Positions 12,975-54,628 of a DNA stretch of 64,000 bases are shown in pieces. Origin of the DNA: an uncultured bacterium (GTDB lineage: Bacteria > Muiribacteriota > Ozemobacteria > Ozemobacterales > Ozemobacteraceae). The stretch's first letter is position 1. Each line of letters begins with the position of its first letter. The stretch covers positions 67,261-131,260 of the forward strand of contig CAYRYU010000004.1 in the NCBI GenBank assembly GCA_964428355.1, given 5' to 3'. Made by a program: the position numbers and the translations under genes. The notes beneath the pieces are model-generated. The model was not told the origin of the DNA. It saw only the letters and a program-made list of their open reading frames with translations, and did no database searches.

Positions 12975-13916
12975 TCAACCCAGGATCGAAATGGCGCGGG
13001 GAAGGATCTTCCACCGCGCGGAAGCAGCCTCGATGATTTCGCCGTCGAAATCGACCGGCTGCGGACTCTCGAAAACAACTGATGCCTGCGAGGTTTCCAG
13101 GAAGTGGACGTCGGGATGACCTCCCAGCCCCTTCTTCTCGAACTCACCGATGAGGCTTATCAGGCGAAAGGGGGAAATCTTTTCGCAGACGGCGAGGTCG
13201 AAGAGACCGTCGTCGGTTTTCCGTTCAGTCATGAAAAAGAACTGGCCGGCGATGTGAGACCTCTTGACGAGGCTCATCCCAGTGAAAAGGCCTTCCCAGG
13301 TTTTTCCACCCGCTTCGACCTTTCCCCTGAACCCGGGGTAGGTGAAGACTTCCCAGGCCGAAACGGCCATCAGAGACCCCCAATACCAGTATCTGTAGGC
13401 GGTATTGAAAAACCCGGGCCTGCCCGTCAGCCTGAAATTCGCTGACGGGATCGTCCCCACGTGGGATGACTGGAGGAAAAAACGGGTCAGGGTTTTTCCG
13501 TCCGGGCAGGTAATCTCGATCGAAAAAACGTCGTGGGGATGCGGGGTGGCTGGGTCGATCCGGACGGGGACTCCTTCGATCCGGTCGGCTTTCGACAGCG
13601 GCTTGTGGAAGTCGTTGCTCGTTCCGAGAGCGATCGCACCCAGGTGGAGATTGAAAGAGGGCGAGCGGGGCGGGGCTTCCATCAGCGCATCCAGTACGGT
13701 CTGGATGGTCCCGTCCCCTCCGGCGGCAATGAAGTGGGTTCCCCCTCGGGAGAAGGTTTCCCGGACGCGTCCGATCATCATCTCCCGTGAACTGCACCGG
13801 TGAACGCAAAGATCCGTGAACCGTCGCCTGAGGCCGGGTTCGAGGGAGTTCCATGCCTTGTCGGCGGTTCCCCGTCCCGCGGCGGGATTGAGGAAGATTT
13901 CGAGTGTCGGCGGCAT
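12975..13916 (-). CDS. DAGK_cat-family lipid kinase (diacylglycerol/sphingosine/ceramide-kinase-like, YegS-like)
   Basis: 313 aa with the FIAAGGDGTIQTVLDAL motif (GGDGT) typical of the DAGK catalytic domain. Confidence 0.8.
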   Translation of the reverse strand: MPPTLEIFLNPAAGRGTADKAWNSLEPGLRRRFTDLCVHRCSSREMMIGRVRETFSRGGTHFIAAGGDGTIQTVLDALMEAPPRSPSFNLHLGAIALGTSNDFHKPLSKADRIEGVPVRIDPATPHPHDVFSIEITCPDGKTLTRFFLQSSHVGTIPSANFRLTGRPGFFNTAYRYWYWGSLMAVSAWEVFTYPGFRGKVEAGGKTWEGLFTGMSLVKRSHIAGQFFFMTERKTDDGLFDLAVCEKISPFRLISLIGEFEKKGLGGHPDVHFLETSQASVVFESPQPVDFDGEIIEAASARWKILPRAISILG

Positions 13917-13932
13917 TCCGGTGCTTTTCCCC

Positions 13933-15198
13933 TTACCCGAGGACTCCGTATTTCTTCCCGAGTTCCCTCAGGAGGCCCATCGAAAAGTCGAGGTCTTCCC
14001 CCGAATGTGTGGCCATGACCGTCAATCGGATCCGTTCCGTTCCGGGGGCTACGGCGGGATACTCGATGAGCGAAAGGAAAAGGCCTCGTTCGTAGGCTTC
14101 CTTGACGATTCCGTAAGCCTTTTCCCGGTTCCTGATGAAAACGGGAATGATGGGAGTGTCTTTTCCCGCCACCTCGTATCCCATCTCCTCGAGACTCGTT
14201 CTGACGATCCGCATGTTCTCGTGAAGCCGGGAAATCAGCTCGGGGTGCTCCTCCAGGACCTCCAGACCCGCAAGGCAGGCGGCGACGGTCATCGGAGCGA
14301 CCGCGGCGGTGAACATTCCCGCCCTGGCGAAATGCCGAAGCCAGTTGATCAGGACCTTGGATCCCGCGATGAAACCTCCGTAGCAGCCAAATGCCTTGCT
14401 GAAAGTGCCCATGACGATGTCGACCTCTCCCTCGACCCCGCAGGCTTCGAGGCTTCCATGACCATGGGAGCCCACAGCACCGGTTCCATGGGCGTCGTCG
14501 ACCAAAAGGGTTGCCCGGTGCCTCTTGCAGACGTCGACGATCTCACGGAGGGGCGCTATCTCGCCGTCCATGCTGTAGACGCCGTCGACCGCCACGAGCT
14601 TGAGACCCGGGATCTCCCGGGCCTCGACCAGGCAGCGGTCGAGATCCCCGGGGTCGGAATGCTTGAAAACGAACCTTCTCGCCCGGCTGAAACGGGCACC
14701 GTCGATGAGGCTCGCGTGGTTCAGTTCGTCGCCGATGAATGCGTCATTCTTGCCCAGGATCGCGGTGAGACACCCCACGTTGGCCGAATATCCCGATGGA
14801 AAGAGCATCGCCGCTTCGCACCCCTTGAAAGCGGCGAGCCGGGACTCGAACTCCTGGTGAAGTGTCGTATTTCCATTGAGAGTACAAGGTCCAGCCATGC
14901 CAATGCCCCACCGGTCGATCGCATGCTTGGTCTTTTCGATGACCCGGGGGTGGGTCGTCATCCCGAGGTAGTTGTTGCTCGCCATCATCACCATGTCGAG
15001 GGGCTTTCCGGTCTCGAGGGAAACCGCCTCGATGTGGTTCCGGCTGGGGCCGGTGGTGGTCCGGAAGAAGAGGTAAAGCTTCTGCCGGCGGGCCTCCTCG
15101 ATCACCTTGTCGAAAATCTCCATCTTTTCCTGGAGTGGGAGATCCGGGTCGGAAACCAGCGCTTTGACATCGAAATTCTGGACATCCATATTGCTCAC
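13933..15198 (-). CDS. Alpha-oxoamine synthase family PLP enzyme, serine palmitoyltransferase-like
   Basis: 421 aa with MASNNYLGMT, FPSGYSANVG, LVAVDGVYSMDGEIAPL and GTFSKAFGCYGGF (the PLP lysine). There are about 70 aa before the NNYLG core, as in Spt/ALAS and unlike BioF/Kbl. Confidence 0.85.
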   Translation of the reverse strand: MSNMDVQNFDVKALVSDPDLPLQEKMEIFDKVIEEARRQKLYLFFRTTTGPSRNHIEAVSLETGKPLDMVMMASNNYLGMTTHPRVIEKTKHAIDRWGIGMAGPCTLNGNTTLHQEFESRLAAFKGCEAAMLFPSGYSANVGCLTAILGKNDAFIGDELNHASLIDGARFSRARRFVFKHSDPGDLDRCLVEAREIPGLKLVAVDGVYSMDGEIAPLREIVDVCKRHRATLLVDDAHGTGAVGSHGHGSLEACGVEGEVDIVMGTFSKAFGCYGGFIAGSKVLINWLRHFARAGMFTAAVAPMTVAACLAGLEVLEEHPELISRLHENMRIVRTSLEEMGYEVAGKDTPIIPVFIRNREKAYGIVKEAYERGLFLSLIEYPAVAPGTERIRLTVMATHSGEDLDFSMGLLRELGKKYGVLG

Positions 15199-15953
15199 CT
15201 CGGTGGAATCTGTTCGCTGATGGCAGGCTCTTTGAACAAGGGCCCGAGAAGCTCCCGGAGAACCCGTGCGGTTTCAACGGTGGGGCGATCGGCGGGCACG
15301 ATGTCCCAGCCCTCCTTTTGGGCGCGATCCAGGAAAAGGGCCCGAAGCCGGGCCTGGAATTCCAGGAAGGTCTTTTCCGATGGCGCGGCGAATCCGCATT
15401 CGTATGGGGTCACTTTTGGTTTTCTGGACCAGGCTTCCCCGGGAGGAAGGTCGAGGAGGATCGTCCGAGAGGGCTTGGGAAAACGTTCCGCCACGTTCTG
15501 GAGCCATTCGAGCGATTCGCCGTGGAGGGCTTCGGTGAAGGCATATTTGTACCAGTAGCCGTCAGCCAGGAGGATTCCCCCCTTCGGGTCAGCCCTCTCG
15601 AGGGCTTCCATGAGCGCGTGGAAGACGAACAGAGCCCTCGGCCCTTTTTCAAGTGACCCGAGGTAGCGATGGATCGCCTCCCGGTCCGAAATGAAAGGGT
15701 GCGAGTGATACCGGGGATTGCGGGTGATCTCCCAGACCGAGACGGGAACCGCCGGGAGCCCGAACTCCTCTGAAAGCCAGTCGGCAATAAGCTTCAGATG
15801 CGTGGATTTTCCGCACCCATCCGTGCCTGTCAGGCAGATCAGCGCGGGAAGGGCGGATGTTCCGCCCGCCGGAGTTTCCCGGACTTTTCCGGTCTTCGGG
15901 AAACCCGGTCCGGATTTCCCTCGGGAGGGACGGGACCGATTGGTGGGGGCCAT
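15195..15953 (-). CDS. P-loop nucleotide/nucleoside kinase, thymidylate-kinase-like fold
   Basis: Walker A LICLTGTDGCGKSTH; a later RTILLDLPPGEAWSRK stretch resembles the Tmk lid/DR region. The start is placed at ATG 15953 with an AGGAGA RBS; the longest ORF would start at 15989. Confidence 0.55.
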   Translation of the reverse strand: MAPTNRSRPSRGKSGPGFPKTGKVRETPAGGTSALPALICLTGTDGCGKSTHLKLIADWLSEEFGLPAVPVSVWEITRNPRYHSHPFISDREAIHRYLGSLEKGPRALFVFHALMEALERADPKGGILLADGYWYKYAFTEALHGESLEWLQNVAERFPKPSRTILLDLPPGEAWSRKPKVTPYECGFAAPSEKTFLEFQARLRALFLDRAQKEGWDIVPADRPTVETARVLRELLGPLFKEPAISEQIPPR

Positions 15954-16109
15954 GGTTATCTCCTGTCCCAGTGCCGGGACACCCCCCATATATCAGAAAT
16001 CCCCCTCCCTAACAACCTGCCCCGGTGAAGGACTGCGGGAAGGCCCTTCAGAGGAGATCGGGCCTGGAATGGTTGCCTGGTGCCGGGTTCGGGATCGGCG
16101 GCGGGGGAA

Positions 16110-16859
16110 TTACCGGAGATGGATCCAATCGATGGCGAAGAGGCAGCCGTCCAGCCCGATCGTCCGGGTCATGGTGTTTTTCGTGGACGATACCTTGTAC
16201 CCGTAGGTGACGTCATACTTCGTTGCGGGGCCGAGGATCGTCAGATCCTTGCACCTGAGCTCGGCCTTGGCATTCCCGTTGGGCGCGAGGATTCCTTCGA
16301 CGGTCGGTGCGATCGGATTCGCGACCGTGGTGTTGTACAGGACCACCTTGTAGGTCAGTTCCGCGGTCGTGCGATTGACGAAAGTGATTACGGGAACGGG
16401 GGGTGGTGCCTGGACCAGCGATGCCATCACCGCCGCAAGGGCAGCCACGTCGTCATTCTTTGTTCCCGTGAAGTCGACGGTCTTGTCGGCTACCACCACG
16501 GAAAACAGATTGCTGGCCACCACCGAGGTGGACTTGATGATGACCGAACTTGGAGGGACATCTATTGCAAAGCCCTTGACATACTCGTCCACGGTCAAGG
16601 TGAACAAGTTGGGGGTGCGGGTTGTCGTCACGGGCCCGCCGATGGAAACGAGGGCATTGTTCGTCTTGAACAGGGTCGAAAGGGCTCCCGCCCTGCCGGA
16701 GCGGAGTTGGTATGTCTGATCACCAACATGGAGCAAAAAAGTGGTTCCGTTCTTGATCTCGACCCTGCCGATCAGCTTGGCCGTATCGGCCGCCAAAGGC
16801 CCGGAGGCAAGGGCAAAAACCATGAATGCCAGCAATCCTGCCATTAGACTTCTACGCAT
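16110..16859 (-). CDS. Secreted hypothetical protein (beta-rich, Thr/Val-rich)
   Basis: 249 aa with signal peptide MRRSLMAGLLAFMVFALASGPLAA. There is an AGGAGA RBS before the ATG, and a stem-loop in the 5' leader at 16890-16912. Confidence 0.5.
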   Translation of the reverse strand: MRRSLMAGLLAFMVFALASGPLAADTAKLIGRVEIKNGTTFLLHVGDQTYQLRSGRAGALSTLFKTNNALVSIGGPVTTTRTPNLFTLTVDEYVKGFAIDVPPSSVIIKSTSVVASNLFSVVVADKTVDFTGTKNDDVAALAAVMASLVQAPPPVPVITFVNRTTAELTYKVVLYNTTVANPIAPTVEGILAPNGNAKAELRCKDLTILGPATKYDVTYGYKVSSTKNTMTRTIGLDGCLFAIDWIHLR

Positions 16860-17012
16860 GTGAGTCTCCTGATGTCGCTTCGATTGAATTCCCCGAAAGG
16901 ACTTTTCGGGACACCCACGCTACGCTCCCGGTTCTGGATTGTCAAACATGGGGGAGGGAGTCGGAAAGGGGAAGGTTTTTGCCAAGGTTCCTTTGCGAGG
17001 AGGAGTTTTCGC

Positions 17013-17684
17013 TCAGCGGAAGAAGTCGCGCAGGAAGCTGATGAAGCCGACCAATGCCAGGAGGATTCCCACCGCCATTGCAAGTTTGATCCGCCAGACC
17101 GGGGTCAGATCCCGCCCTTCCTCCAGGACCAGCAGGTTCCCGGGGTCGAGGGTCGGAAACGAGCTTTTGATGAGCTTCTCCTCGCGGGTGGAAAGCGACG
17201 AGAATTCGTTGATGATCACGCCTTTGATTTCCCCTTCAGGAACCACTCCCACTGGAATCGATGCCACCGAGCTGAACCTTGTGGTTTTTACGAGCATCCG
17301 TAGATCGGCCGGGCGCGGGAAATCCTCAGGGGGGATTTCCTCGATCGTCCCGAAGGAGGCGACAATGGCTGAAAGCGATGCGTGAAAAGGGTGAGAAGCC
17401 GGAATGACCGGATAGAGGCAGTAATCTATCGGAGTCTGAAGGGTCGGGGAAGCCCCGCCCTTGCTGTCGGAAATGATGAAAAGGGCCTCGTTGAAGAGGG
17501 CTGTATGGGAACCGATTATCACATGGAGGTTTCCGGCCCCCCCGGGTTTCCCGAGCTCCTCGATGGTGACCCGCGACGGCTCGGGTAGTGCCCTACGGGA
17601 TATCTCCCGCTCCCGCCACGCCCAGAGGGCGAGCACGATCCCCAGGATCATCAGGAGGACCTTGAGCTCCGTCTTCGGGATCAT
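17013..17684 (-). CDS. Bitopic membrane protein of unknown function (TM helices at the N- and C-termini)
   Basis: Start chosen at ATG 17684 (MIPKTELKVLLMILGIVLALWAW), which has a GGGAGGG RBS. The longest ORF (to 17756) would overlap the upstream HAD gene by 29 bp. Confidence 0.5.
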   Translation of the reverse strand: MIPKTELKVLLMILGIVLALWAWREREISRRALPEPSRVTIEELGKPGGAGNLHVIIGSHTALFNEALFIISDSKGGASPTLQTPIDYCLYPVIPASHPFHASLSAIVASFGTIEEIPPEDFPRPADLRMLVKTTRFSSVASIPVGVVPEGEIKGVIINEFSSLSTREEKLIKSSFPTLDPGNLLVLEEGRDLTPVWRIKLAMAVGILLALVGFISFLRDFFR

Positions 17685-17727
17685 CGCTTTCCCTCCCGGA
17701 ACAGCGTCTGATGGCTCGAGGGTTTCG

Positions 17728-18462
17728 TCATCCGCCGACTCCGAGAATCTTCGCAAGCAGATCGTATCCCCCAGCCCATGTGGGCTGGAGCCCCTCGGGC
17801 CAGCCCTTTTCCTGGAGGAACCTGGTTCTCATAAGGAATGTCCTGACGCCGGATTTCAGGGCAAACAGGTCTTTTCGGACGTCATTGCCGATCATCAGGC
17901 AGTCCTCGGGGGAAAGCCCCTTGAGGGAAAGGAGCTCCTGGAAGAAGCGGGGTTCCTTCTTCTGCCCGATGTGGTCCTCGCTACCGGAAAAGTGTTCGAA
18001 GGATCCGGGGTTGTAGCCGGCTTTCGCAAGACGGTCCCGCGTGAAACACGAGGGCATGACGGGGTTGGTGGCGACGATCTGGCGCATTCCGCCGCTATTT
18101 CGGACCCTTTCGACGAGGTCGAGGGCCTCGGGGATGGGCCGGATGAAACGGCCAACCAGGTCCATCACTTCGCCTCCCCCAAGAACCCGCCTGGAGATCT
18201 CGCAGATCTCCGAGGGGGAAACCCCGAGCGACCGGGATAGGGTTTCGTTGAAAAGGGCATCGTTTTTTACCGGCCCGCGGTTTCGCAAAACGCGAATATA
18301 TGCCTTGGCCGTGGCCAGGAGAGCCCACGGCCGGAAAGGTTTCCCGGGGAGGGCCCGGACGAAAAGGCCGACCAGGGGGGGGATGAACCCGAACCCGGTC
18401 CAATAGGCCAGGGTTCCGTCGAGGTCCCAGAGGAGGACCTTTGGCCGCCAACTTCCGGTCAT
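17728..18462 (-). CDS. HAD-superfamily hydrolase (phosphatase)
   Basis: 244 aa. Motif I VLLWDLDGTLAYW; the downstream GNDVRKD region fits HAD motif IV. Confidence 0.7.
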   Translation of the reverse strand: MTGSWRPKVLLWDLDGTLAYWTGFGFIPPLVGLFVRALPGKPFRPWALLATAKAYIRVLRNRGPVKNDALFNETLSRSLGVSPSEICEISRRVLGGGEVMDLVGRFIRPIPEALDLVERVRNSGGMRQIVATNPVMPSCFTRDRLAKAGYNPGSFEHFSGSEDHIGQKKEPRFFQELLSLKGLSPEDCLMIGNDVRKDLFALKSGVRTFLMRTRFLQEKGWPEGLQPTWAGGYDLLAKILGVGG

Positions 18463-20177
18463 CCGTTCTTCTTCTCCCGCTCTCCTAAAATTCTGATGGT
18501 TCCATCCGACCCGTCAATTTCTACCATGGAACCGTTTCGAAGGGAATCCCAGATCCCTTTTGCGCCGAAAACCGCGGGAAGGCCATATTCCCGGGCCGCG
18601 ATGGCCCCATGCGAAAGGGTTGCGCCCGTTTCCGCGATCAAGCCGCTTATGAGCGGGAAAGCGACCGTGAAAAACGGATCGGGGGAACGCACCAGAAGAA
18701 TGCCTCCGCGAACCAGGTTTTCGAGGTCGGAAGGGGTGGCCGCCTTGTGTATCCGGCCCGTGACCCGTCCCCTTGAAACACCAAGGCCGATGGGGCCGGT
18801 TTCCGGAATCCGCACGCCACGCTGGGATCCAGTTTCGGATGGCTCGGGCGGTGGGCCGCGTTTCACGGCTTCCATCCAGGAATCCCCCCTTTTCGCTGCG
18901 AGTTCCCTCAAATCGGGAGGGTGGGGACTCTTCAAGGCGGAACGGACCTCGGAATCGGTCAACCAGAAGATGTCCTCCGGAAATCCGATGCAGCCTCTTT
19001 CCTTCAGCACCGCTCCAAGCTTCAGAACCAGCTTTCGGGTCGGGGGCAAAACCTTCCCCATGAAAAAATGATGGTCCTCGTCGATCTGCATGAACTCACG
19101 GAGGGTTTCGACCAGGAAATCCGCGAACTCATCCGCCCCGGCGGACCTCGCCGATTCCATGAGGCAAGCCTTCCCACGTTTCCGGTCTTCCCGCCAGCAG
19201 TCTCCATCCGATTCCCGGGTTCCAGGGGGGGGATTCCCTGAGGCGGCTTCACCGGCTCCGCGAAGAAAGCGGCAAAAACCATCCGCGTCTTCGCCCCAGG
19301 TCGGCTGGCGGATGTCCCAACCGGGGGAGATGTGGCCGTACGTTTCCAGGAAAGCGAGGACCGCCCCCCGGTCTTCCGCAGAAAGGCCTTCGATACCTTT
19401 TTCCGGGGAAAAGCCGGGGGAAAGCACCGACCTCAAACCCGCCAGGTCGCGGTTCATCTCGAGAGTCACGTTCCGCGGCAAACCCGATCCGAGGATCGAT
19501 GGAAGCTCTTCCGGACAGGGCGTCTCCAGGAGTTGCCCGAGTTGGGAAAGCATCATGGAGGCGATTTCCTTGATGGCGAAAATGACGAGATCCGGTCGAA
19601 TGTACAATATCGTCTCCCGGCGAAGCCGGTCCCCTATCGCAAGAAGGCATTCGGGGTCGGTTTCGGCGTCGATTTCGCGGTCCAACCCCCCGACAGCGGC
19701 AAGGAATCCGTCCCTGACCCGTGGCCAGGAGGAGCGGGTTTCCTCCGCAATCCTTCCCAGATACCGCCGGATGGCTCCCGATGAGGCGATGAATGGAAGC
19801 GTCCGCGGGGAATTCCCGAGCCGCGTTTTCGACCGGTCAGGGTGACGGATCCAATCTGCGAGGGATTTGAGTTCCCGCATCGGCGAAGGGGAAGAGACAA
19901 GGAAGCGGACCAAGGCCCACGCAAGGCCGAGAATCTCCCGTGGTTCAAGCTTGATACGGAAGGATTTCCGGAAGTCGAAAGCCTCGGCGTTGGCCACTAC
20001 CCACCCATCGATCGTTTTCGCCAGTTCCTCTTGCGGATCGATCGGAATCCCCATGAAATCGGCGAACGACCTGACACCCTGGTCGAAAACCGACTTGAGG
20101 TTGTCCCATCCGAGAGGGCTGAGCGGGAGCGGGTACCTTTCGGCCGTGAGTTTCCGCGTCCAGACGATCCCGGTCAC
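18459..20177 (-). CDS. PEP-utilising enzyme mobile (phosphohistidine swivel) domain protein with a PEP-synthase/rifampicin-phosphotransferase-like central region
   Basis: 572 aa. The C-terminus (GGILLVRSPDPFFTVAFPLISGLIAETGATLSHGAIAAREYGLPAV) matches the PEP-utilisers swivel domain, including the phospho-His region. It overlaps the neighbouring genes by 4 bp on each side. Confidence 0.75.
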   Translation of the reverse strand: MTGIVWTRKLTAERYPLPLSPLGWDNLKSVFDQGVRSFADFMGIPIDPQEELAKTIDGWVVANAEAFDFRKSFRIKLEPREILGLAWALVRFLVSSPSPMRELKSLADWIRHPDRSKTRLGNSPRTLPFIASSGAIRRYLGRIAEETRSSWPRVRDGFLAAVGGLDREIDAETDPECLLAIGDRLRRETILYIRPDLVIFAIKEIASMMLSQLGQLLETPCPEELPSILGSGLPRNVTLEMNRDLAGLRSVLSPGFSPEKGIEGLSAEDRGAVLAFLETYGHISPGWDIRQPTWGEDADGFCRFLRGAGEAASGNPPPGTRESDGDCWREDRKRGKACLMESARSAGADEFADFLVETLREFMQIDEDHHFFMGKVLPPTRKLVLKLGAVLKERGCIGFPEDIFWLTDSEVRSALKSPHPPDLRELAAKRGDSWMEAVKRGPPPEPSETGSQRGVRIPETGPIGLGVSRGRVTGRIHKAATPSDLENLVRGGILLVRSPDPFFTVAFPLISGLIAETGATLSHGAIAAREYGLPAVFGAKGIWDSLRNGSMVEIDGSDGTIRILGEREKKNG

Positions 20178-21556
20178 TCGATCTCTTCCAGGATCGCGAA
20201 GATCTCGGCTTCGGTCTTGCCCAGGCGGGTCTTGAACTCGTCGATCCGTCCGGGGACCTCGACGAAAAGGCTGCGAAGCGATCCGAGCAGCTCGAACAGG
20301 GACTTTCCCATCAGCAGGAAAAAGATCGCAAGGCCGAAATCGCGCCCGACCTCCCGACCTGTCCGACGGAGGTTCACCCAGAAAAGCCTTCCGAGAGAAA
20401 TCTCACCCTTCCGACATGCGTTGGTCCGGAAAAGGATGTCCCAGGGCGGGAGGAGGAGGCGGGTCCAGAATTCCCTGAACCAACCCAGTTTCCTGAAGAA
20501 CCGGGTTTCGAAGGTGAATGCGAGGTATGCTTTTTCGATGCGCGAGGAGTAGGTGCTCCGGCAGACCAGAAGGATGTCCTTGCGGGCGGCAAGCGCTCGG
20601 GTATCGGAGACGACGAACTTGTCGGCCCTGGCGCGGGCGGATTCGAGGACACGCTCAGGAATGATCGGCCCGTAAAGGGTCTCGACCAGGAGGAGGGGCC
20701 TGAAAACCTCGGTGTGGCTTCCCGCCCTTTCCATGAATTCGAGGAATCTCCCCCAGTTGAACGCAGGAAAGGCGCGAAGGAGGTTGAAAAAGTCGCCCAG
20801 CTCCTTCGGGCCGACCTTGTAGTAATGGAAATGGACGCAGAGGTGATGGAGGTTGTCCTCCGGGGTCATGGCGAAAACCGTATCTCCCCGGTCGGGAAGA
20901 TGGGTCTTTTCCGCCCAGATCCTGTCGAGGTCGAGATCGAGTCCGCGTTTTGGGCTGACAAGGTTCCAGTGGGCGCTTACCATGAACGTGAGATCGGTGG
21001 AGACGTAGGTGGGAAGATGGTGGGTCTTTTCGCGCCGGGGTTCCCTCTCGTCGCCTCCTTCGAGCAGCGCGAGCGGAACGAGGTCCAGCTTTTCGAAGGT
21101 GTCCCGGACCCTGGCGATATCCTCGAACCGGAATAGCAGGTCGAGGTCGTTCATCCGCTTGTAACCTGGATCATGGTAGATTGTTTCCGCGAAAAGGCCG
21201 CCTTTTAGGACGATGACTGGGATCCCGTGCTTCCCAAGCTCGGAAAAGAGCTGTCGCGTTCGCTCTCCACGTCGGAGGTTCAGTTCACGGATCTTCTGAT
21301 GGCGGAGGGAAAGATACCCGGCAACCTCTTGGGGCAACGAATCCAGGAGCCCCTCGCGGGAGAGGCTCAGGTGAACCAACGGACCCACATCATTGTGTGC
21401 GACCTTCCGGCAAAAGGGGGCCCAGTCGCGTATCCTTCCGATCAGCTCACGGACCTGGCCTTTCTCCGTTTCTGACCTCCATGCCCTCGTAAGGAGGAGG
21501 ATCAACCGGTCGGTCCGGGAGAACTCCCTTGTCGGGAAGATTTTCGAGGTTTCCAT
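20174..21556 (-). CDS. Uncharacterised nucleotidyltransferase family protein (NTP_transf_5-like); first gene of the operon
   Basis: 460 aa. The pattern IPVIVLKGGLFAETIYHDPGYKRMNDLDLLF...HLCVHFHYY resembles the PF14907-type nucleotidyltransferase fold seen in RiPP and lipid clusters. Assignment is from memory of the family pattern and is tentative. Confidence 0.55.
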   Translation of the reverse strand: METSKIFPTREFSRTDRLILLLTRAWRSETEKGQVRELIGRIRDWAPFCRKVAHNDVGPLVHLSLSREGLLDSLPQEVAGYLSLRHQKIRELNLRRGERTRQLFSELGKHGIPVIVLKGGLFAETIYHDPGYKRMNDLDLLFRFEDIARVRDTFEKLDLVPLALLEGGDEREPRREKTHHLPTYVSTDLTFMVSAHWNLVSPKRGLDLDLDRIWAEKTHLPDRGDTVFAMTPEDNLHHLCVHFHYYKVGPKELGDFFNLLRAFPAFNWGRFLEFMERAGSHTEVFRPLLLVETLYGPIIPERVLESARARADKFVVSDTRALAARKDILLVCRSTYSSRIEKAYLAFTFETRFFRKLGWFREFWTRLLLPPWDILFRTNACRKGEISLGRLFWVNLRRTGREVGRDFGLAIFFLLMGKSLFELLGSLRSLFVEVPGRIDEFKTRLGKTEAEIFAILEEIE

Positions 21557-21697
21557 GGAACCAATCTACCGGTGAATCTCCCGCCACGCAAGCGAAATGG
21601 GTTCTGGGTGGGGAAATCGAGTTGTTGAATGGAGTGTCTCTGTATTATATTGGTTGGCAATCTTTCGGAAGCGGGAACCAAAGCCGGTATCTCCATC

Positions 21698-24157
21698 ATG
21701 AGCCTGACTCCCACACGAGTTTTCAAGACCAGCGAGGCGGCACAACCGACCTCGAAAATGCCGCGATTGTCGGATTTCTCCGCTGGAACGGTCTCCGCCC
21801 TCGTCATGATCAGCTTCGCTGTCAGTTATGGGGCGATGGCCTTCAGCGATCCGCTTCTCCAGCCCTATGTCACAATCGGGGTCCGTGGGGCCCTGGTTAC
21901 GACCTGGGTCCTTCTCGCCATCAACGCGTTCTGGAGCTCATTCCCCTTTTCCCTTGCCGGCCCCGACTCCAATTCCACGATCTTGTTGGCGTTGGCGGGA
22001 GCGAGCATCGCCCACGAGGTGGTTGCCAGGCAGGGCGGTCCCGGAATGGTTCTCGGGTCGGTCCTGATGTTCTTCCTGATCGCAACGGTTTTTGTCGGAA
22101 TCGCCACCTGGACGATCGGGGCGCTCAAACGGGGGGGAATAATCGCATTCCTGCCCTGTCCCGTCACGGGAGGATTCCTCGCGGGAACCGGAATCCTGGT
22201 TGCCATGGGAGCCCTCAAGGTTCTTCTCGGAAAGAACGTGACGCTGGCGAACCTCGCGGCGTTCCGGGATCCCACTTCGATAGGCATCTTCGTCCTTCTC
22301 GTCGCCGGTTTGCAGATCATTCCACGTTTGTACAAGAGCATTTTCACGTTTCCCGTTTTGATCCTCCTCGGGACCGGGCTCTTTTACGGCTCCCTCCATT
22401 TCCAGGCCCTCGACATCGATGCCGCAAGGAAACTCGGCATGCTTATCTCCTCCCCCACGGGCTCGATCGGGCCGATTCCCACCCTCGAGGTCGACTGGAT
22501 GGCCCTCGCAGAGCACTGGACCGCGGTGCTTCCATTGATGGTGATTGTAGTCCTGACCACGCTTTTCAACACCGCCGGTCTGGACGTCGTCTCACCCGAG
22601 GACGGAAATTTCGACCACGAGCTAAAGGGGATAGGCGTCGCCCTGATAGTGAGCGGGGCTTTGGGCGGGTTCCTGGGGCATACCTCGGCAAGCCGCAGCC
22701 TCATGCACCGGCTGGCGGGGGCGCGCACTCCGGCTGGAGGCCTCTGGGCGGCATCGATATGCTGCTTCGTGACGTATTTCTACCCCGACATACTCGCCTT
22801 CCTCCCGCGGACGGTTCTTGCGGCCCTTCTTTTCTCGATGGGTCTCGGGATGATAATGGATTGGGGAGTCCAGTCATACTTCCGCCTTCCCTTCCTCGAA
22901 TACCTGTTGACGGCGATGGTCGCCCTGATCATCGCGTCCGTCGGGCCGATCGCGGGAGTCATCACAGGCCTTTTGTTCACCTCCATCCTGTTCGTGTTCA
23001 ACTACAGCCGGATAGACTGCATCCGGCACATGTTCTGCGTTGGGGAGAGGTTTTCCATCAAAGACCGTCCCATCCAGCAGATGGAGATCCTCCGGAAGCA
23101 TGGGGAAAGTTGCCGGATTCTCGAACTGCAGGGGTTCGTCTTTTTCGGAACCTCCAACAACATCGTGAACCTCTTGCGCGAGTTGGTGAAAAAGTCATCC
23201 CCCAAGCTTTTCATCATGGATTTCCGAATGGTTCAGGGAGTGGACGCCTCGGCGGTCTACGGCTTTGCAAAGCTTGCCCAGATTTTCGCACGCGAAAAAG
23301 TCGCGCTGGTCTTCTCGGGGATGAGAACCGAGATGGAAGCCCTTTTCCGCCGCGGAGGATTGAACGAAAAGCTGGGGGTCCGGTTCGAGGTGGACCTGGA
23401 GACCGCTCTGGAACAGGCTGAAGATGGTTTCCTTGCGGAGTTCCGGGAAAAATCCAGGAAGGAACAGATCGAAGGTGGGGCTCTCCCCCCCGACCCAGCC
23501 GCGATTGCGATCCCGAGGATTTCCACTGAAGCTGTTCCAGCAGCCGATGCAGCCTCCATGGAGGCCGAAGCGACGATCAAAGGCAATGGTGCGCTTCCTC
23601 CCGATTCCCAGAAACGGAAAGGGCCTCTCCAACCGGTTTTCGGATACTCGGGTTTCCACATGTTCCAGGGGTTCGATTTCGAAGCCAGCCGAAAGGCGTT
23701 TTCCGAGGGGTCCTGGGCACAAATGGATGCGAAGGACATCCTGGCCCCCTTCATGCTCGATCCGAAGATGCTCGAGATCCTCCTGGGCTACTGCGAAGTC
23801 CTCGAGATCGACCAGGGGGCGATGCTTTTCAAGAGGGGTGACCCCACCACGGGAATGTACTTCCTCGAACGCGGGACACTCTCGATCTTCCTGACACTCC
23901 CGGGTGGAGAAAGAAAGAGGCTTAGAACCCTTGGCCCGGGGTCCGTCGTCGGGGAGATGTCCCTCTATTCGCGCCAACCGCGCTCCGCGGATGCCGAGGC
24001 GCGCACCCAGTGCCGCTTGCGCTGGCTGAGCATCGGATGTTTCGATAGGCTTACCCGGGAACATCCCGAAGTCTGCAACGAGTTCCACCGGTTCATCGTC
24101 AAGCTTCTATCGTTCAGGCTCGCCGGGGCTAATGCCCAGATCCTGGCTCTTTCCTGA
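21698..24157 (+). CDS. SulP/SLC26-family anion transporter fused to a STAS domain and a C-terminal cyclic-nucleotide-binding (CAP) domain
   Basis: The permease core is recognisable (LAGASIAHEV...; many TM segments). The STAS domain reads FIMDFRMVQGVDASAVYGF...LVFSG, and the cNMP domain reads FKRGDPTTGMYFLERGTLSIF...GPGSVVGEMSLY. The start is set at ATG 21698, downstream of an AT-rich promoter-like stretch at 21624-21652; the longest ORF would start at 21629. Confidence 0.85.
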   Translation: MSLTPTRVFKTSEAAQPTSKMPRLSDFSAGTVSALVMISFAVSYGAMAFSDPLLQPYVTIGVRGALVTTWVLLAINAFWSSFPFSLAGPDSNSTILLALAGASIAHEVVARQGGPGMVLGSVLMFFLIATVFVGIATWTIGALKRGGIIAFLPCPVTGGFLAGTGILVAMGALKVLLGKNVTLANLAAFRDPTSIGIFVLLVAGLQIIPRLYKSIFTFPVLILLGTGLFYGSLHFQALDIDAARKLGMLISSPTGSIGPIPTLEVDWMALAEHWTAVLPLMVIVVLTTLFNTAGLDVVSPEDGNFDHELKGIGVALIVSGALGGFLGHTSASRSLMHRLAGARTPAGGLWAASICCFVTYFYPDILAFLPRTVLAALLFSMGLGMIMDWGVQSYFRLPFLEYLLTAMVALIIASVGPIAGVITGLLFTSILFVFNYSRIDCIRHMFCVGERFSIKDRPIQQMEILRKHGESCRILELQGFVFFGTSNNIVNLLRELVKKSSPKLFIMDFRMVQGVDASAVYGFAKLAQIFAREKVALVFSGMRTEMEALFRRGGLNEKLGVRFEVDLETALEQAEDGFLAEFREKSRKEQIEGGALPPDPAAIAIPRISTEAVPAADAASMEAEATIKGNGALPPDSQKRKGPLQPVFGYSGFHMFQGFDFEASRKAFSEGSWAQMDAKDILAPFMLDPKMLEILLGYCEVLEIDQGAMLFKRGDPTTGMYFLERGTLSIFLTLPGGERKRLRTLGPGSVVGEMSLYSRQPRSADAEARTQCRLRWLSIGCFDRLTREHPEVCNEFHRFIVKLLSFRLAGANAQILALS

Positions 24158-24191: not shown

Positions 24192-27100
24192 TCAGATCCT
24201 GCCCGGGACGGCAACCGCGATGCTCACGACGAAATCCGCATCCTTGAATGAAAGCACCCTGAACCCCCCGGGGACCCCTTCGAGCATGGCTTCGTAGGGT
24301 TCGTTGTAACCGAAGGACAAGATCCGGATCCGCGTGAAATCCTTCACGCCGAAGCCTGTCCGGAGGGTTTTCGAAACGGCTTCCTTGGCGGTCCAGAGGG
24401 TGACGAGCTCGTCCTTTGGAAGGAGAGCGGATTCCCGCTCGTTCAGGAAACTCTGCGAGGGAACCCCCGAAAGGGGGCGGAACGGCTCGATATCGATCCC
24501 GATCGGAACGGTCGAACAGGTGGCGACCCCGATCTCCCCGGAATGTGAGATCGTCGGGTGGAGCGATTTCAAAACCTCCGAGGCCCCTGGAGGAACTTCC
24601 GCCCCGGGAACGAAGTGGGGGGGCTGGCTTCCCGACAGGACGCTGAAGTGGGGGAAGGAGATCTCGATCCCGGTCCGGTCTCGAAGGATTTCCCTCGCCA
24701 GGATCTTCAACGCGATCCTTCCGGAAACCCATTCCCGACTGCGTTTGGGGGTCCTCAGAGCGGCGAGGACCTCCTGCTCGGTCGCGGAAAGAAGGCTCGA
24801 GACAAGAGAAGGGGAGGCAAGCAACCTGTCCGCGTCGCCCAGCGAGACGCCCATGAATGGGTAATCCCCGACCTGGAATGGGACTCCCACCGAGACGAAG
24901 GTGTTCTTCAGACCGGGCTCTTCCTTCCCGGTCACCATGACGAGATTCCGGATGTGTACAAGGGGATTCTTCCGGTCGTCGGAAACCGTCACGTTGAACC
25001 CAACGCGCAACATCGGAAGCCCCGGCGCGGAATCCCTTTCCACCCCCAGAAGTTCCACCGACACCGTGGCGGGGGGATTCGCCCGGAGCGCGTCGAGATC
25101 GACAAGCATCTCCCCGATGGCCGATGGGAGGAAGAACCTTCTCGAGAAGACCCGAAGGAGGCACAAGATTCCCGCGCCATGCAACCCCGCCTCGATCGCG
25201 AAAAGAAGGGCGGAATGGTCTGCGAGAGGGTTATTTTCGAGTATCGCCGGTGACCGGGAAACGGTAGCCCGTAGGGCTCGGCGGTTGAACTCCTCGACCC
25301 TGTCGATGACCTGGAACGTCCTGCCGTGAAAGAGGATTCTGTACAACTCGTCCCGCGCCGGTGGATTGCGGGTCGGACAGAAGCCCGATGTCTCATCCGC
25401 GAGAAGAAGCCCGACCTTCCTGACCTGGTCCGTCATTCGCACGCGGTCAGAGGGCCCGGCTCCGGTGGGATCGAAACGGCCGGTGAAATGGGGAGTTTTT
25501 CGGCCCTGCGACCCCGTCTTGGGATTTCCGGTCATCCGGAAGAGGTCGCCCTCCCTTTCTGTCTGGAGGGTCAGCCGCTGGAAGGACGAGAACCGGAACG
25601 GCGCATGGAACGAAAGATCCCGGACCGTCGCTATCCCCGAGAACCTCGAGAGGACCCCGGCCTGGTCCAGCATACGGTGGATGTACATGACCGCAGGGAA
25701 GATGCATTTTCCGTCGATGGCATGGTCGCCCAGGAACCGGTAATCCGATGGCGCGAGACGGATCACCGAAAGGCTCTCGACCTCCTTGTCAACCTGCGCA
25801 TCCTCCGCTTCCGACCGGGTTTGAGGTTGCCCTGGGTCTCCAATACCCTTTTCTTGCGGGGACGCTTCCTCATAACGACGGGAGCGGGTCATCGCCTCGC
25901 CCAGGAACCCGTGGTATGAAACGGTGCGGAACCTCGCCTGATCCGTGACGAGGGAGCGGTGGAGTTCCCCCAGGAAAAGTTCCTCTCCCGCGGCGGGGTC
26001 GATGAACTCGACTCCCTGTGCCTTCAGCAGATGCTCGACGGAGGGTCTCGCGGCAAGCCCGATTCCTGCCCAGGCGGTCCAGGAGATCGTGAGGAAGCGC
26101 GCCTGGCCTGAACCCGAGAATCTGTTGAGGAAACCGTTGGCCGCCGCGTAGTCCGCCTGTCCATGGTTGCCGAACAGGGATGCCACCGATGAAAAACTGA
26201 CGACCGATCCAATTCGGTCCTCCCCAAGGGCGTCGAGGAGGTTTACCAGCCCGGCCACCTTAACCCGGTAAACCCGGTCGATCTCTTCCGGAGTCTTGTT
26301 GGCCAGATTCCGGCTGATCTCGATCCCGGCCCCGTGGATCAGGATGTCGATCCGGGGGAACCTCCGGGCGATGGTTTCGGCGGTCCGATCCACCGCGGGC
26401 CCATCCGAAAGATCGCATGGGTAGTAGACCGCGGTTGCCCCCTGGCTTCTCAGTGCCTGGAGAACCTCGTTCTGTTCAGATGACCGGCCCAGGATGAGGA
26501 TCACGGGTTGAAACTCCCGTGCCAGCCTGGTCACGATCCGTGCCGTGATACCCTTCGCTCCTCCGGTGGCAAGGATGACCGTCTTCTGACCGATCACCTT
26601 TCGGAGACCTTCGAGGACTTCCCGGATCGGGGTTGCCTCGGGATCGGGAACTACCCTGAAAGCTTTTGGCGAACCCGAAGGGGGGAGTCCGATAATGGGC
26701 TCGAGGCGTGGAGCGAAAAGGAGAGGGGCGACCTGTTCGGCAGTTTCCGGGGAAAAATCCGGGAGGTCGAAACCCATTGAGACGAGATTCGGGAAATCCT
26801 TTTCGAGGGTCTGGCAAAAAGCCGGTATCACTCCTGCGAGGAACCCGGGTTTTCCCACGGAATCTGCCGGCTCCCCGAGGACACCGCCCGCGTCGGCCAG
26901 GACGATGAAACGTCTGATTCCCCGCCCGAGAAGGCGGGCGGCCAGGAACATCGAAAGGACATGGTGCCGGTAGAAGCGCTTCCGGGTCTTGCGGGAAAAG
27001 CTTTCGCTGGGCAAAGTATGGATGTAGGTTCCCGTATCCCGAAGCGATTCGGGGAAATCCCCAGATTCGAGGAGTTCCTGGTCATGGTCGGTGGGGCTCC

Positions 27101-30100
27101 AAATGCTGCATGCGATGCCGTGGGGAGCGAGAAGTTCCACCATCCTGGAATCGAAATCCGGGTTGCCCGTGGACTTCATCCGGACAAGCCCGATTCCTGC
27201 GGGGGAAGGAAACTCCTCGAGAAGCGGAACCGAAGAGTCTTCGATCCTCAGCACGTGCCGATGGATGCCAAGGGTGGGGTGGGGGACCGGACTTTCAAGG
27301 GAGGAAGGGGCGATACTTCCCGCCCCGCCGGCTTCGAGGGCATCCCGGAAAAGGCCGGTCAGGGAACGGAAGGTGCGCAAACGGGAAAGGTCGAGCTTGA
27401 GATTCCGGGCCAGGCCGAAATTTTCCCTCAACCGGTTCGCGATCTCGAAGATCTTCAGGGTGTCGATTCCAAGGTCTCCTTCGAGGTCGGTATCGGGCTG
27501 GATCATATCCGAGGGATATCCGGAAACCTCCTCGATAAGTGCCATCACCGCTCCTTCCAGGTCGGACGGCGGACGGGGGGGGGCGGCGGGTTGCGCAGGG
27601 GCAGGTGGCTGGCCGGAAGCCTGCGCGGGGGTGGGAATCCCTGAGGGTTGCAGAAGCCTCTGCAGAAGCTTTTCCATGAGCTTCCCGGGCTGCTGGCGCG
27701 GATTGTCGATGTGGAAGCATTCGTGAGGTCGGGGCGCGAGGATGCTTTCGATCAGGCGGCTGAGAACGTTCTTCGGGCCCACCTCGACGAAAACACGGAC
27801 TCCGGCCTGGTATGCCCGCTCGACCTGGTCGATGAAATCGACCGGGGAAACCGCCTGCCGCATCAGGAGGCGGATCGTTTCCTCACGTTTCGACTCACCG
27901 GAGGGTTTTCCAGACTCGGCTTCAGGATACCAGGCTCCATGGACATTCCCCGGAACCCGGCTGGAAGGTGGCTTGATAGCGAGTCCCCTGATCATCTGCT
28001 CGAAGGGGGGAATAGCCTTCTCGACAAGCTTCGAATGAAAGCCGGCGGAGACCCGAAGCCTCTTTGCGAGGATCCCCAGGGCGGTGAAATGCTTGATCGC
28101 GGCTTCGACGGTTGGGGTGTCGCCGCTGATGACGGTCTGGGAAGGGGAGTTGAGGTTCGAACAGATTAGGTAACCCGGGAAGTCATCGAGCACCTTCCCC
28201 ACCTCACTTGCTCCAAGCCCGATGACGGCCATCGCTCCCAGGTCGGTTCCCCCTAGTGCGTTCATGTACTTGCCCCTTATGCAGACGGCCTCGAGGGCGT
28301 CTTCGAGGGAGAAAGCGCCTGCTGCGTACAAAGCCGAATACTCGCCAAGGCTGTGGCCGAAATACATGTCGAACTGGAGGCCTTTTTCGCGCAGCAGTTC
28401 CAGAAGGGCGGCGGATGTGGCGAAAATCGCGGGTTGGGCGAAGAGCGTCGTCTGGAGCGTAGCTTCGGCCTGTTCGAGCCTTTCGGGAGGGAGACTCCTG
28501 GTTTCCTGGAAGATGGCTTCCAGAAGCGAATCCCCGTTGACTTTCCGGAAAACCCTTTCTGCCTCGCCCAGAATCCGGGAAACTGACGGTTCACCCCGGA
28601 AGGCCGAGATCATGTTGACATACTGCGACCCCTGCCCCGGGAAAACCCCCGCCACGAGTGGCCGGATCGAAGAGTGACCCGCAGAAACCGTCGGACGGGT
28701 TTCCTTGATATCCGGTCCGTCGGGAATTTCGGAGAACCTGATCTCGAGCCTGGCCTTGTTTTTCGGAGCTTCGGAAAGGACGACGTGGTGGTTGGTGCCT
28801 CCGAACCCGAAGGATGAAACTCCCGCCAGGAACGACTCTCCCTCGAAACCGGCCGGTGCGCGTGGAATGAACAACGGGATCTTGTCGGCATCCACCGTGG
28901 GCGGAAAACCTTCGAAATTGACCTGGGGAGGGATGATCCGCTGGTGGACAGCAAGGACCGCCTTGAGCATCCCCGCGATTCCTGCTGCGGCCTTTGCATG
29001 GCCGATCATGGCTTTGACGCTTCCCACCGGGATCCGGGGTTGTCCGCCCTTCCGTGCCCCAATGACTCCGCTCAGCGAGGAGAGCTCGATCTCGTCTCCC
29101 ACGCGCGTCCCAGTCCCATGCGCTTCGAAATAGGCCGCCTGGGCCGGGGAAAGACCGGCATCCCGCCAGGCTCGTTCCAATGCTCGCTTCTGGCCTTCAG
29201 GATTCGGGGCGGTTATCCCCTTGCCCCTTCCGTCGCTGCTGGCGCCTATTCCCCTGATGACTGCGTAGATCTGGTCACCGTCGCTTAGAGCGTCCTCGAG
29301 CCGCTTCAACATCACCAGGCCCCCGCCCTCCCCCATGACGAAACCGCTGGCCCTCGAGTCGAAAGGAAAGGAGCCTTCTGCCGAAAGGGCGGTCACCTTG
29401 GCAAACTTGACGAAGGAGCCCGGGTCCATCTGGACATCGATTCCGCCTGCAAGGGCAACGGAGATGCTTCCCAGGCGAAGTGCCTGGACCGCCACAGCGA
29501 CCGCGGCCAACCCCGAGCCGCAAGCGGCATCGATGGTGAAGTTGGGGCCGTGGAGGTCGAAGGTCGAGCAGACCCGTCCGGCGATGATGGTCGACAGCTC
29601 GCCCGGAAGGCTGTCCTCGGTGATGGGACGCGTGGGATTGAGATTCCGGAATGCCTTGACCAGGTCGCTCCGGGTCTTCTCAGGGACCCCGGCTTCCAGC
29701 CTCAGGAGCTTTTCCAGGAACTCATGGAAATGGATCGCCCGAAGGTTTTCAACGCTGGCATTCCCGCCCATGCTGTTGCCGATGATCACGCCGCAGTTCT
29801 CCCGGTCGAAAGGCTTCTCCAGATACCCCGCGTCGAGAAGCGCCTGGCGGGCGCAGATTAGGGCAAGTTTCTGTCCCGTGTCGAGATGAGCCGCCACGCG
29901 CGGAGGTATCCGGAACATCACGGGATCGAACGGGACCTCCTCGATGACTGCCCCGATCCGGCTGTAGGTGGAATAAGGTTTCAGCCTGTCTTCGCTGAAA
30001 AAAATCGCAGGGTCCAGCATCGATTCCGGGAGGGCCTTGATGAAACAACGCCTTTCTAACACGTTCCGAAAAAAGGAAGCGGGGTCGGGGGACCCGGGGA

Positions 30101-54566: not shown

Positions 54567-54628
54567 CTGCCCTCCTGTTTCCCGGTGCTTTCGAAAGGTG
54601 ATCCGGGCTTGTGCTATGATACCGTTTG

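Follow-up and report, generated by a model that had tools for sequence, protein, structure and literature searches.

The locus described here raises the question of how a fatty-acid or polyketide synthase that carries its own priming enzyme can work when the residue expected to receive the cofactor is a threonine. It lies in a stretch of 64,000 nucleotides from an uncultured bacterium of the Ozemobacteraceae (contig CAYRYU010000004.1, positions 67,261 to 131,260, assembly GCA_964428355.1), hereafter the window, where a single gene encodes a protein of 2629 residues. As an earlier note on this DNA had observed, enoyl reductase (ER), ketosynthase (KS), acyltransferase (AT), acyl carrier protein (ACP), ketoreductase (KR), dehydratase (DH) and phosphopantetheinyl transferase (PPTase) domains follow one another in one open reading frame (ORF), which lies on the minus strand, a detail that the note had not given. 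Pfam matches, all above or near the gathering thresholds, occur in that order: NMO/ER 358-615, KS 650-1057, AT 1146-1445, PP-binding 1512-1574, KR 1836-2005, PKS_DH_N 2108-2175 and ACPS 2526-2601. The single carrier is borne out by one PP-binding domain and one GIDT motif, and the C-terminal segment is the Sfp-type PPTase that had been proposed: scanned alone it matches Pfam ACPS with 37.7 bits (cut-off 25), and it aligns to Sfp (1QR0, E 2.4e-4) over ISHSG (~2512), PIGIDIE (GIDIE from 2528) and LWTAKEA (WTAKEAVSK from 2563). The GxD/WxxKEA motifs, or more fully (I/V)G(I/V)D and (F/W)xxKE(A/S)xxK with the upstream SHS, are all present. An assembly chimera is ruled out, because two independently assembled contigs (SRR12133403 and SRR12133404) encode the identical 2629-aa protein and the Riflebacteria protein P0003 aligns end to end in the homolog search (42% identity, 100% of the length covered).

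Apart from the carrier-site serine, here Thr1541, the catalytic motifs are intact in all recognised domains over 7.9 kb of open frame, and no thioesterase, reductase or other release domain was found in Pfam and NCBIfam scans. The best explanation is probably an iterative synthase of type I, from a family not yet characterised, with a PfaA-like core, two FabK-like barrels in tandem and a PPTase that primes its own carrier on threonine, which passes a largely saturated chain to a downstream gene set containing an alpha-oxoamine synthase (AOS). The observation of the earlier note is confirmed in this way and its interpretation partly supported: the type of ER and the independence of the gene were wrong, and the uniqueness of the layout was overstated.

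Threonine carriers and the built-in PPTase

In canonical ACPs a serine stands at the start of helix II. The synthase has Thr1541 instead, a residue on which the earlier note had not remarked and which in PDB alignments falls on the phosphopantetheinyl serine of solved carriers, among them PigH and AcpM; the best solved match is the pair of carriers in PigH, an enzyme of ACP-ACP-AOS layout. We know of no carrier protein in which the cofactor-bearing residue is other than serine, and to our knowledge PPTases are described as Ser-specific. A census of 127 ER-fused relatives, each of at least 2000 aa, returned 47 proteins with threonine only and 74 with serine only, none mixed and six without a detected ACP motif; the Thr-type relatives keep threonine in every ACP copy, up to seven in tandem. 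An integrated PPTase occurs in 17 of the 47 Thr-type proteins and in one of the 74 Ser-type ones (Fisher p 1.6e-7, uncorrected for phylogeny). In a neighbour-joining tree of KS domains, which carries no support values, the Ser-type proteins form a clade nested within a Thr-type grade, and therefore one switch suffices.

These relatives, of which the nearest are metagenome-assembled genomes (MAGs) of Candidatus Riflebacteria, were divided into classes by homolog search and segment mapping. Class 1 (the window enzyme and Riflebacteria P0002/P0003, P0004 and P0126) has the layout barrel-ER-KS-AT-ACP-KR-DH-PPTase, which is also that of P0128, although this protein is placed just outside the class-1 clade. 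Class 2 (Desulfomonile, ~3500 aa) has an extra KS-like domain and 1-3 ACPs and keeps the PPTase; class 3 (Desulfobacterales, including the cultured Desulfobacula toluolica, ~3800-4100 aa) has 3-7 ACPs and no PPTase; class 4 (~2000-3000 aa; Planctomycetes, Chloroflexi, Poribacteria and others) is likewise without it, and a Bryobacteraceae protein with a Ser-type ACP and a PPTase (P0084) is unclassed. The KS tree separates the ER-fused proteins, as a single clade, from modular polyketide synthases (PKSs), and class 1 is a clean sub-clade of them. On this basis the architecture is real and recurrent. The ER-fused layout is common to hundreds of database proteins, whose public annotation is generic only ('SDR family oxidoreductase', 'type I PKS'), and our literature search found no description of an ER-KS-AT synthase family; the family is uncharacterised, that is, present in databases and undescribed in the searchable literature.

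Self-priming of the synthase is plausible, because the ACP and the Sfp-type PPTase share one polypeptide with the ER, KS, AT, KR and DH. More broadly, we tentatively propose that a large PfaA-like clade, comprising the window enzyme, Riflebacteria, Desulfomonile and cultured Desulfobacterales such as D. toluolica, could link phosphopantetheine to threonine, and that the built-in PPTase could be an adaptation for priming Thr carriers. Several points weigh against it. The association with the PPTase lacks a phylogenetic correction; class 3 has Thr carriers without any built-in or adjacent PPTase, so that the link is a tendency and not a rule; and a full-text search of the literature found no report of Thr-linked phosphopantetheine, nor anything relevant on GIDT carrier motifs. 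The Thr-type enzymes would either carry the cofactor on threonine or all be inactive, and wholesale inactivity is hard to reconcile with the conservation of the threonine across them. A dead synthase whose carrier has lost the accepting serine, a reading that the substitution and the silence of the literature would both suit, was rejected as very improbable, given that the threonine is invariant in all 47 diverged proteins and that the remaining motifs are intact.

Some members of the family deserve separate mention. In the metagenome locus L005 (3572-12409) the synthase appears as two ORFs, of 1920 aa (barrel-ER-KS-AT-ACP) and 913 aa (KR to PPTase), and the tail of the first resembles an out-of-frame translation; the division may be natural, or due to a frameshift or an error of assembly. 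Two relatives, P0048 and P0121, are labelled by NCBI as Asgard archaeal MAGs (Promethearchaeota and Heimdallarchaeota), labels that could come from lateral transfer or from binning contamination. In L032 (21621-27275) a class-3 Thr-type synthase adjoins genes for a TetR regulator and for a fused acetyl-CoA carboxylase of giant size (1884 aa), and in L031 (7366-8262) the class-3 synthase of D. toluolica neighbours a PlsC-type acyltransferase and a sigma-54 activator; these carboxylase and acyltransferase neighbours hint that the class-3 enzymes may be primary fatty-acid synthases in Desulfobacterales. Behind the Bryobacteraceae synthase with Ser-type ACP and PPTase (L008 / L009, 18520-20084) come a small ORF and a sulfotransferase gene, and the vicinity also encodes an RND efflux system and a PPDK/Rph-like protein, which suggests that the product in this lineage is a sulfated lipid.

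Two FabK-like barrels in tandem

The reductase had been taken for a PfaD-type domain standing at the N-terminus, and both parts of this assignment have to be revised. When residues 291-640 were scanned alone, the only match was FabK TIGR03151 (98.8 bits, profile positions 3-303 of 307), with no PfaD-family match in the profile scan. Sequence relatives in the PDB are only FabK and nitronate monooxygenases (NMO; best 5e-22), PfaD structures being absent from these matches though present in the PDB. Foldseek placed FabK first (E 6e-19, TMt 0.85, root-mean-square deviation ~2.6 Å), and PfaD (4Z9R, 6LKC) and the ERs of trans-AT PKSs came only at E ~1e-8 and TMt ~0.5. On account of these sequence matches and this ranking of folds, the ER is FabK-type and not PfaD-type; its score lies below the equivalog cut-off of TIGR03151 (453 bits), and on this evidence it is a FabK-like domain and not an orthologous FabK. 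The features that define FabK-type domains are all found in it: a TIM barrel, motif I (xPMxG) as QGPM at 306-309, motif III (xExGGH) as ESGGH at 431-435, and the catalytic His435.

Residues 1-290, which the earlier note had overlooked, contain a second, degenerate FabK-like TIM barrel. Their matches to NMO, FabK and dihydroorotate dehydrogenase are weak (Pfam NMO E 7e-4, FabK E 1.5e-3, PDB FabK E 6.6e-4), but when they were modelled alone with AlphaFold2 (AF2) the core 1-180 reached pLDDT >90 with alternating strands and helices, and FabK was again the best Foldseek match (E 9e-7). This first barrel departs from the FabK motifs: QGPM is missing, and GNEVGGF stands where the active barrel has ESGGH, therefore the catalytic histidine is missing too. 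It is nevertheless still under selection, because five residues (G126, E128, G131, G157 and G158) are invariant over 30 diverged relatives. An exhaustive HMMER search with this barrel against 1.84 billion representatives recovered 271 proteins at E ≤ 1e-3 and ~11 at E ≤ 1e-10; the matching region is always near the N-terminus, and many of the proteins have 2000-3200 aa.

In the AlphaFold model of residues 1-640 (pLDDT 90.6, pTM 0.92) both barrels show the FabK-type fold and pack confidently as one unit, a packing that derives from a single model and is to that extent a point against relying on it. TIM-barrel ERs function as dimers, and thraustochytrids have an ERb/ERc heterodimer in which one partner stabilises the other (PMC13311796). 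By analogy, the tandem barrels may form an intramolecular pseudo-dimer with one active site, where the His-less barrel would be the dimer partner of the active ER. As in thraustochytrids, two non-identical TIM-barrel ERs would work as one functional unit; there, however, the ERs are separate subunits, PfaD-like and both with the catalytic His, whereas here they belong to one chain and the first has lost it. FabK itself, the best match of residues 291-640 in sequence (22-28% identity) and structure, is a free-standing homodimer, unlike these two barrels fused in tandem to a megasynthase.

The remaining domains agree with an elongating and reducing enzyme. By motif, the AT is malonyl-type. The dehydratase has H2120xxxGxxxxP, and E2297xxxH replaces the usual DxxxQ/H. 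Between the ACP and the KR lies a region that is probably the KR structural subdomain. In the word-indexed homolog search the DH-PPTase region gave one weak match and the ACP query none.

The downstream gene set and the proposed release of the chain

The genes that follow the synthase suggest how the chain might leave it. A conserved and co-directional set (Table 1) begins 2.6 kb downstream, and its minus-strand genes within 12975-18462 were established by tblastn against relatives combined with codon-position GC; the two ORFs of unassigned family among them gave no family match in profile scans. In the Riflebacteria locus L003, whose synthase is 42% identical to that of the window, the order is PKS, radical-SAM, NTP_transf_5, PPDK-like, TMK-like (thymidylate-kinase-like), AOS, DAGK and MMPL, with NTP_transf_5 43% and the PPDK-like protein 42% identical to their counterparts (other identities in Table 1). 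In L005 the split synthase is followed directly by NTP_transf_5 and the phosphoenolpyruvate (PEP)-utilizer gene, so that every class-1 locus whose sequence continues past the synthase, three in all, has this pair downstream. The synthase gene accordingly does not appear to be functionally solitary, but part of a conserved amino-lipid-type cluster. The AOS matches BioF/Kbl (1.7e-85) and serine palmitoyltransferase (SPT; 8e-84) in the PDB.

Thioester-bound acyl chains are released by AOS enzymes through pyridoxal-phosphate (PLP)-dependent condensation with an amino acid, as in PigH, SPT and the fumonisin enzyme Fum8. Since the synthase has no release domain and AOS enzymes perform this very step, the most parsimonious model would have the class-1 synthase feed a custom acyl chain into the cassette. 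The C-terminal PPTase would prime its own ACP in cis on threonine; the AT would load malonyl, and KS, KR, DH and the FabK-type ER would run repeated full reduction cycles to give a largely saturated acyl-ACP. The chain would then be passed to the downstream set, where the AOS would most likely join it to an amino acid in a PLP-dependent Claisen condensation and so set it free as a long-chain amino-ketone, a sphingoid-like base on which the lipid kinase, the TMK-like kinase, the HAD protein, NTP_transf_5 and the PEP-utilizer protein could then act. We thus predict, from the genes present, a reduced acyl chain released by alpha-oxoamine synthase, product and release chemistry being hypotheses. 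The likeness to PigH-type systems extends to the carriers and to an AOS that scores like SPT and BioF/Kbl alike, but the window AOS is a separate gene 9 kb away, in a cassette also found without any PKS.

The gene had been read before as a stand-alone, monocistronic and self-sufficient minimal synthase, one that needs no dedicated partners to make a fatty acid or polyketide and release it in free form. Its elongation and reduction domains and its PPTase are indeed all in cis, its immediate neighbours are convergent and divergent, as stated, and without link to lipid synthesis, and the class 2 (Desulfomonile) and class 3 (Desulfobacula) synthase genes are solitary, which shows the family to be able to work without the cassette. 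We nevertheless regard this model as unlikely in the window, in view of the missing release domain, of the NTP_transf_5 and PEP-utilizer genes found in three loci out of three, and of an AOS, a TMK-like protein and a DAGK syntenic with a relative whose synthase has diverged so far. Part of it stands: with the inverted transporter gene between them, synthase and cassette are not co-transcribed and the synthase may well be transcribed alone, and a self-activating enzyme with ACP and PPTase in cis remains plausible. What does not stand is the word 'minimal', with no release domain and conserved genes downstream.

The proposal that the synthase feeds the cassette has to face several contrary facts. 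An inverted transporter gene lies between both; this SulP-STAS-cNMP gene, which interrupts the cluster in the window, is missing from those of L003 and L005. L005 has no AOS within the sequence covered, and the solitary genes of classes 2 and 3 count here as well. The scores of the AOS are all below the equivalog cut-offs (Kbl 384/460, BioF 376/426, SPT 362/640 bits), which bears on its specificity. Finally, 20 metagenome loci anchored on NTP_transf_5 revealed (PPDK)-AOS-NTP_transf_5-PPDK-HAD-TMK-like-DAGK as a widespread cassette that mostly lacks both a PKS and an acyl supply of its own. Its wide occurrence in this form also counts in favour of the proposal. Because it usually occurs without any PKS, the co-location with the synthase could be partly historical.

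The cassette is often accompanied by a class-III aminotransferase fusion, radical-SAM, P450, reductase and MacB/HlyD export genes (L013, L016, L019, L021, L022). The pairing of AOS with class-III aminotransferase resembles the BioF/BioA logic. No characterisation of the cassette was found in the literature, where PF14907 figures only as an uncharacterised neighbour in phosphonate clusters. The PEP-utilizer/Rph-like protein of the window (572 aa) has the swivel-His domain and no PPDK_N ATP-grasp, which is present in its homologs of 840-870 aa in L003 and L022. Since the ATP-grasp is missing and the gene shares 4 bp with that of NTP_transf_5, nucleotide binding for the PEP-utilizer protein may be the task of NTP_transf_5.

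Table 1. Coordinates of the synthase, its domains and the surrounding genes in the window.
Feature	Residues	Position	Strand	Evidence or remark
Whole synthase ORF	2629 aa + stop codon	24192..32081	minus	ATG start, uninterrupted
Pseudo-ER, degenerate FabK-like TIM barrel	1-290	31212..32081	minus	Pfam, PDB, AF2, Foldseek
FabK-type FMN (flavin mononucleotide) enoyl reductase	291-640	30162..31211	minus	TIGR03151, PDB, Foldseek, motifs
Ketosynthase, Cys854 + His in EAHGTG and KAMIGH	645-1113	28743..30149	minus	Pfam 8.5e-57 and 7.6e-38
Acyltransferase, GHSLG + AGFHS	1146-1445	27747..28646	minus	Pfam 6.4e-37, FabD TIGR00128 5e-49
Single ACP, motif DLGIDTLK	1512-1574	27360..27548	minus	Pfam PP-binding 29.4 bits; PDB alignments to PigH, AcpM
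Codon ACC at the phosphopantetheine-Ser position	Thr1541	27459..27461	minus	carrier alignments, family census
Region without family match, kept in class-1 relatives	1591-1825	26607..27311	minus	34-42% identity to relatives
Ketoreductase, Tyr1978	1836-2005	26067..26576	minus	Pfam KR 6.2e-32
PKS-type dehydratase	~2090-2400	24882..25814	minus	PF21089 27.4 bits; weak match to PfaA model C-terminus
Sfp-type PPTase: WVSGRIALK, ISHSG, GIDIE, WTAKEAVSK	2441-2629	24195..24761	minus	Pfam ACPS, 1QR0 alignment
SulP-STAS-cNMP transporter gene, convergent with synthase		21629..24157	plus	
NTP_transf_5 (PF14907) nucleotidyltransferase-like		20174..21556	minus	Pfam 6.9e-39; 43-51% identity to L003, L005 genes
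Rifampin-phosphotransferase/PEP-synthase-like C-terminal half (PEP-utilizer)		18459..20177	minus	38-42% identity to L003, L005
HAD-family hydrolase		17728..18462	minus	40% identity to L003 HAD
ORF of unassigned family, predicted membrane protein		17013-17756	minus	coding-type GC1/2/3 pattern
ORF of unassigned family, signal peptide		16110-16859	minus	coding-type GC1/2/3 pattern
Thymidylate-kinase-like (TMK-like) P-loop protein		15195..15989	minus	49% identity to L003
Alpha-oxoamine synthase (BioF/Kbl/SPT family)		13933..15198	minus	Pfam 1.2e-54; 69% identity to L003
YegS/DAGK-family lipid kinase		12975..13916	minus	45% identity to L003
Major Vault Protein (MVP)-like, divergent neighbour	845 aa	32286-34823	plus	MVP_shoulder 5e-29, Vault_3, Band_7
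HAMP-SpoIIE (PP2C phosphatase) paralogs, three	~960-995 aa	6291-9278; 9239-12127; 54626-57601	minus; minus; plus	
Antisense ORFs, three	up to 580 aa	13816-15558; 16080-16847; 17461-18240	plus	overlap real minus-strand genes

Other features of the window touch the synthase only by position. Homologs of MVP are unusual in bacteria; the MVP-like gene adjoins the synthase on independent Logan contigs too, and is missing from the Riflebacteria and L005 loci. Three large paralogs of a HAMP-SpoIIE protein are also encoded. A promoter and terminator scan around the SulP junctions gave nothing beyond shuffled expectation. The antisense ORFs opposite the cassette, one of which even matches in tblastn, over its full length (E 1e-79), the strand antisense to the L003 homologs, can easily mislead ORF calling by length in GC-rich DNA such as this.

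Known synthases and the meaning of the family

Among the closest published layouts is that of the enediyne polyketide synthases (PKSEs; CalE8, SgcE, DynE8), iterative type I enzymes in which KS-AT-ACP-KR-DH is followed at the C-terminus by an Sfp-type PPTase, priming the enzyme's own single ACP. The window enzyme shares this domain order on one polypeptide, to which it adds an N-terminal extension of 640 aa, and related iterative PKSs make polyenes, so it could be asked whether it is a PKSE or polyene synthase with an acquired extension that makes a conjugated polyene. We rejected this as highly improbable. PKSEs have no ER and yield a polyene, whereas here the FabK-type ER is intact and conserved, its FMN and catalytic motifs complete, with the second barrel before it. 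Their ACP motif is H(L/M)(S/T/N)S(I/L) (PMC3107222), HMSSI-like, against DLGIDTL in the synthase. They also need a hot-dog thioesterase and an enediyne cassette, neither of which was found among the annotated ORFs of the window, nor any other enediyne partner gene in its 64 kb, the gene context being unrelated. Moreover, the best curated KS match is PfaA, and no enediyne PKS occurs in the 60 best solved matches.

The second comparison is with the Pfa systems, to which the KS-AT-ACP-KR-DH core is closest. Fusions of pfaD and pfaA have been published in Ottowia, Aquimarina, Flavobacterium and Renibacterium, and PPTase domains inside pfaC or pfaBC, which gives precedents for both an ER before PfaA and an integrated PPTase, although in the synthase the PPTase lies on the ACP's own polypeptide. 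The claim that both fusions were unprecedented does not survive these reports: each fusion is known singly, the PPTase of PKSEs included, and the synthase is otherwise a PfaA-like iterative enzyme. A fused PfaD-PfaA subunit of a polyunsaturated fatty acid (PUFA) or secondary-lipid synthase, with a PfaC-like KS-CLF-DH/isomerase partner encoded elsewhere, would agree with these fusions and with PfaA (TIGR02813) as the best NCBIfam model of the KS. The score of 656 bits, however, stays below the PfaA equivalog cut-off of 1010; Pfa systems have 3-9 ACPs, a PfaD-type ER and a PfaC partner, whereas the synthase has one ACP with a Thr carrier residue and an ER of the FabK branch, and neither a second KS of a PfaC-like partner nor a FabA-type dehydratase was found in the 64 kb of the window or in the relatives' loci. 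We rejected this reading too as scarcely credible. In this line, the layout matches none of the 20 secondary-lipid types (A-T) of Shulse & Allen, compared by description of gene and domain organisation; the nearest is type J, with a separate pfaD and KS-MAT-ACP3-KR.

The fungal type I fatty-acid synthase (FAS), likewise a megasynthase, combines a TIM-barrel ER that uses FMN with an integral PPTase, and the beta chain of yeast FAS appeared at Foldseek rank 48. It differs in domain order, in its two-subunit barrel and in MPT/AT release, and the sequences are unrelated outside the ER fold.

If the architecture of the PfaA-like, Thr-carrying synthase works as inferred, with a reductase pair, a priming enzyme and one carrier, it would be the most complete single-chain bacterial fatty-acid or polyketide machine of the PfaA lineage, and compact enough for heterologous lipid production. 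Specialists would be interested in the pair of active and inactive FabK barrels, a natural test of why TIM-barrel enoyl reductases must dimerise, and in the carrier of Thr type, accompanied by a PPTase in cis. The link with an AOS and lipid kinase cassette directs attention to a class of amino-lipids still unexplored, in phyla that have received little study. Of greatest consequence is the threonine that is invariant at the carrier site of dozens of diverged synthases, and both cultured Desulfobacterales and the excised domains (ACP, PPTase) lend themselves to a direct test of the linkage. If true, Thr-linked phosphopantetheine would be a new post-translational linkage and would imply a new PPTase specificity, and it would alter carrier-protein biochemistry, the rules of PPTase specificity and genome-mining tools such as antiSMASH, all of which presume serine.

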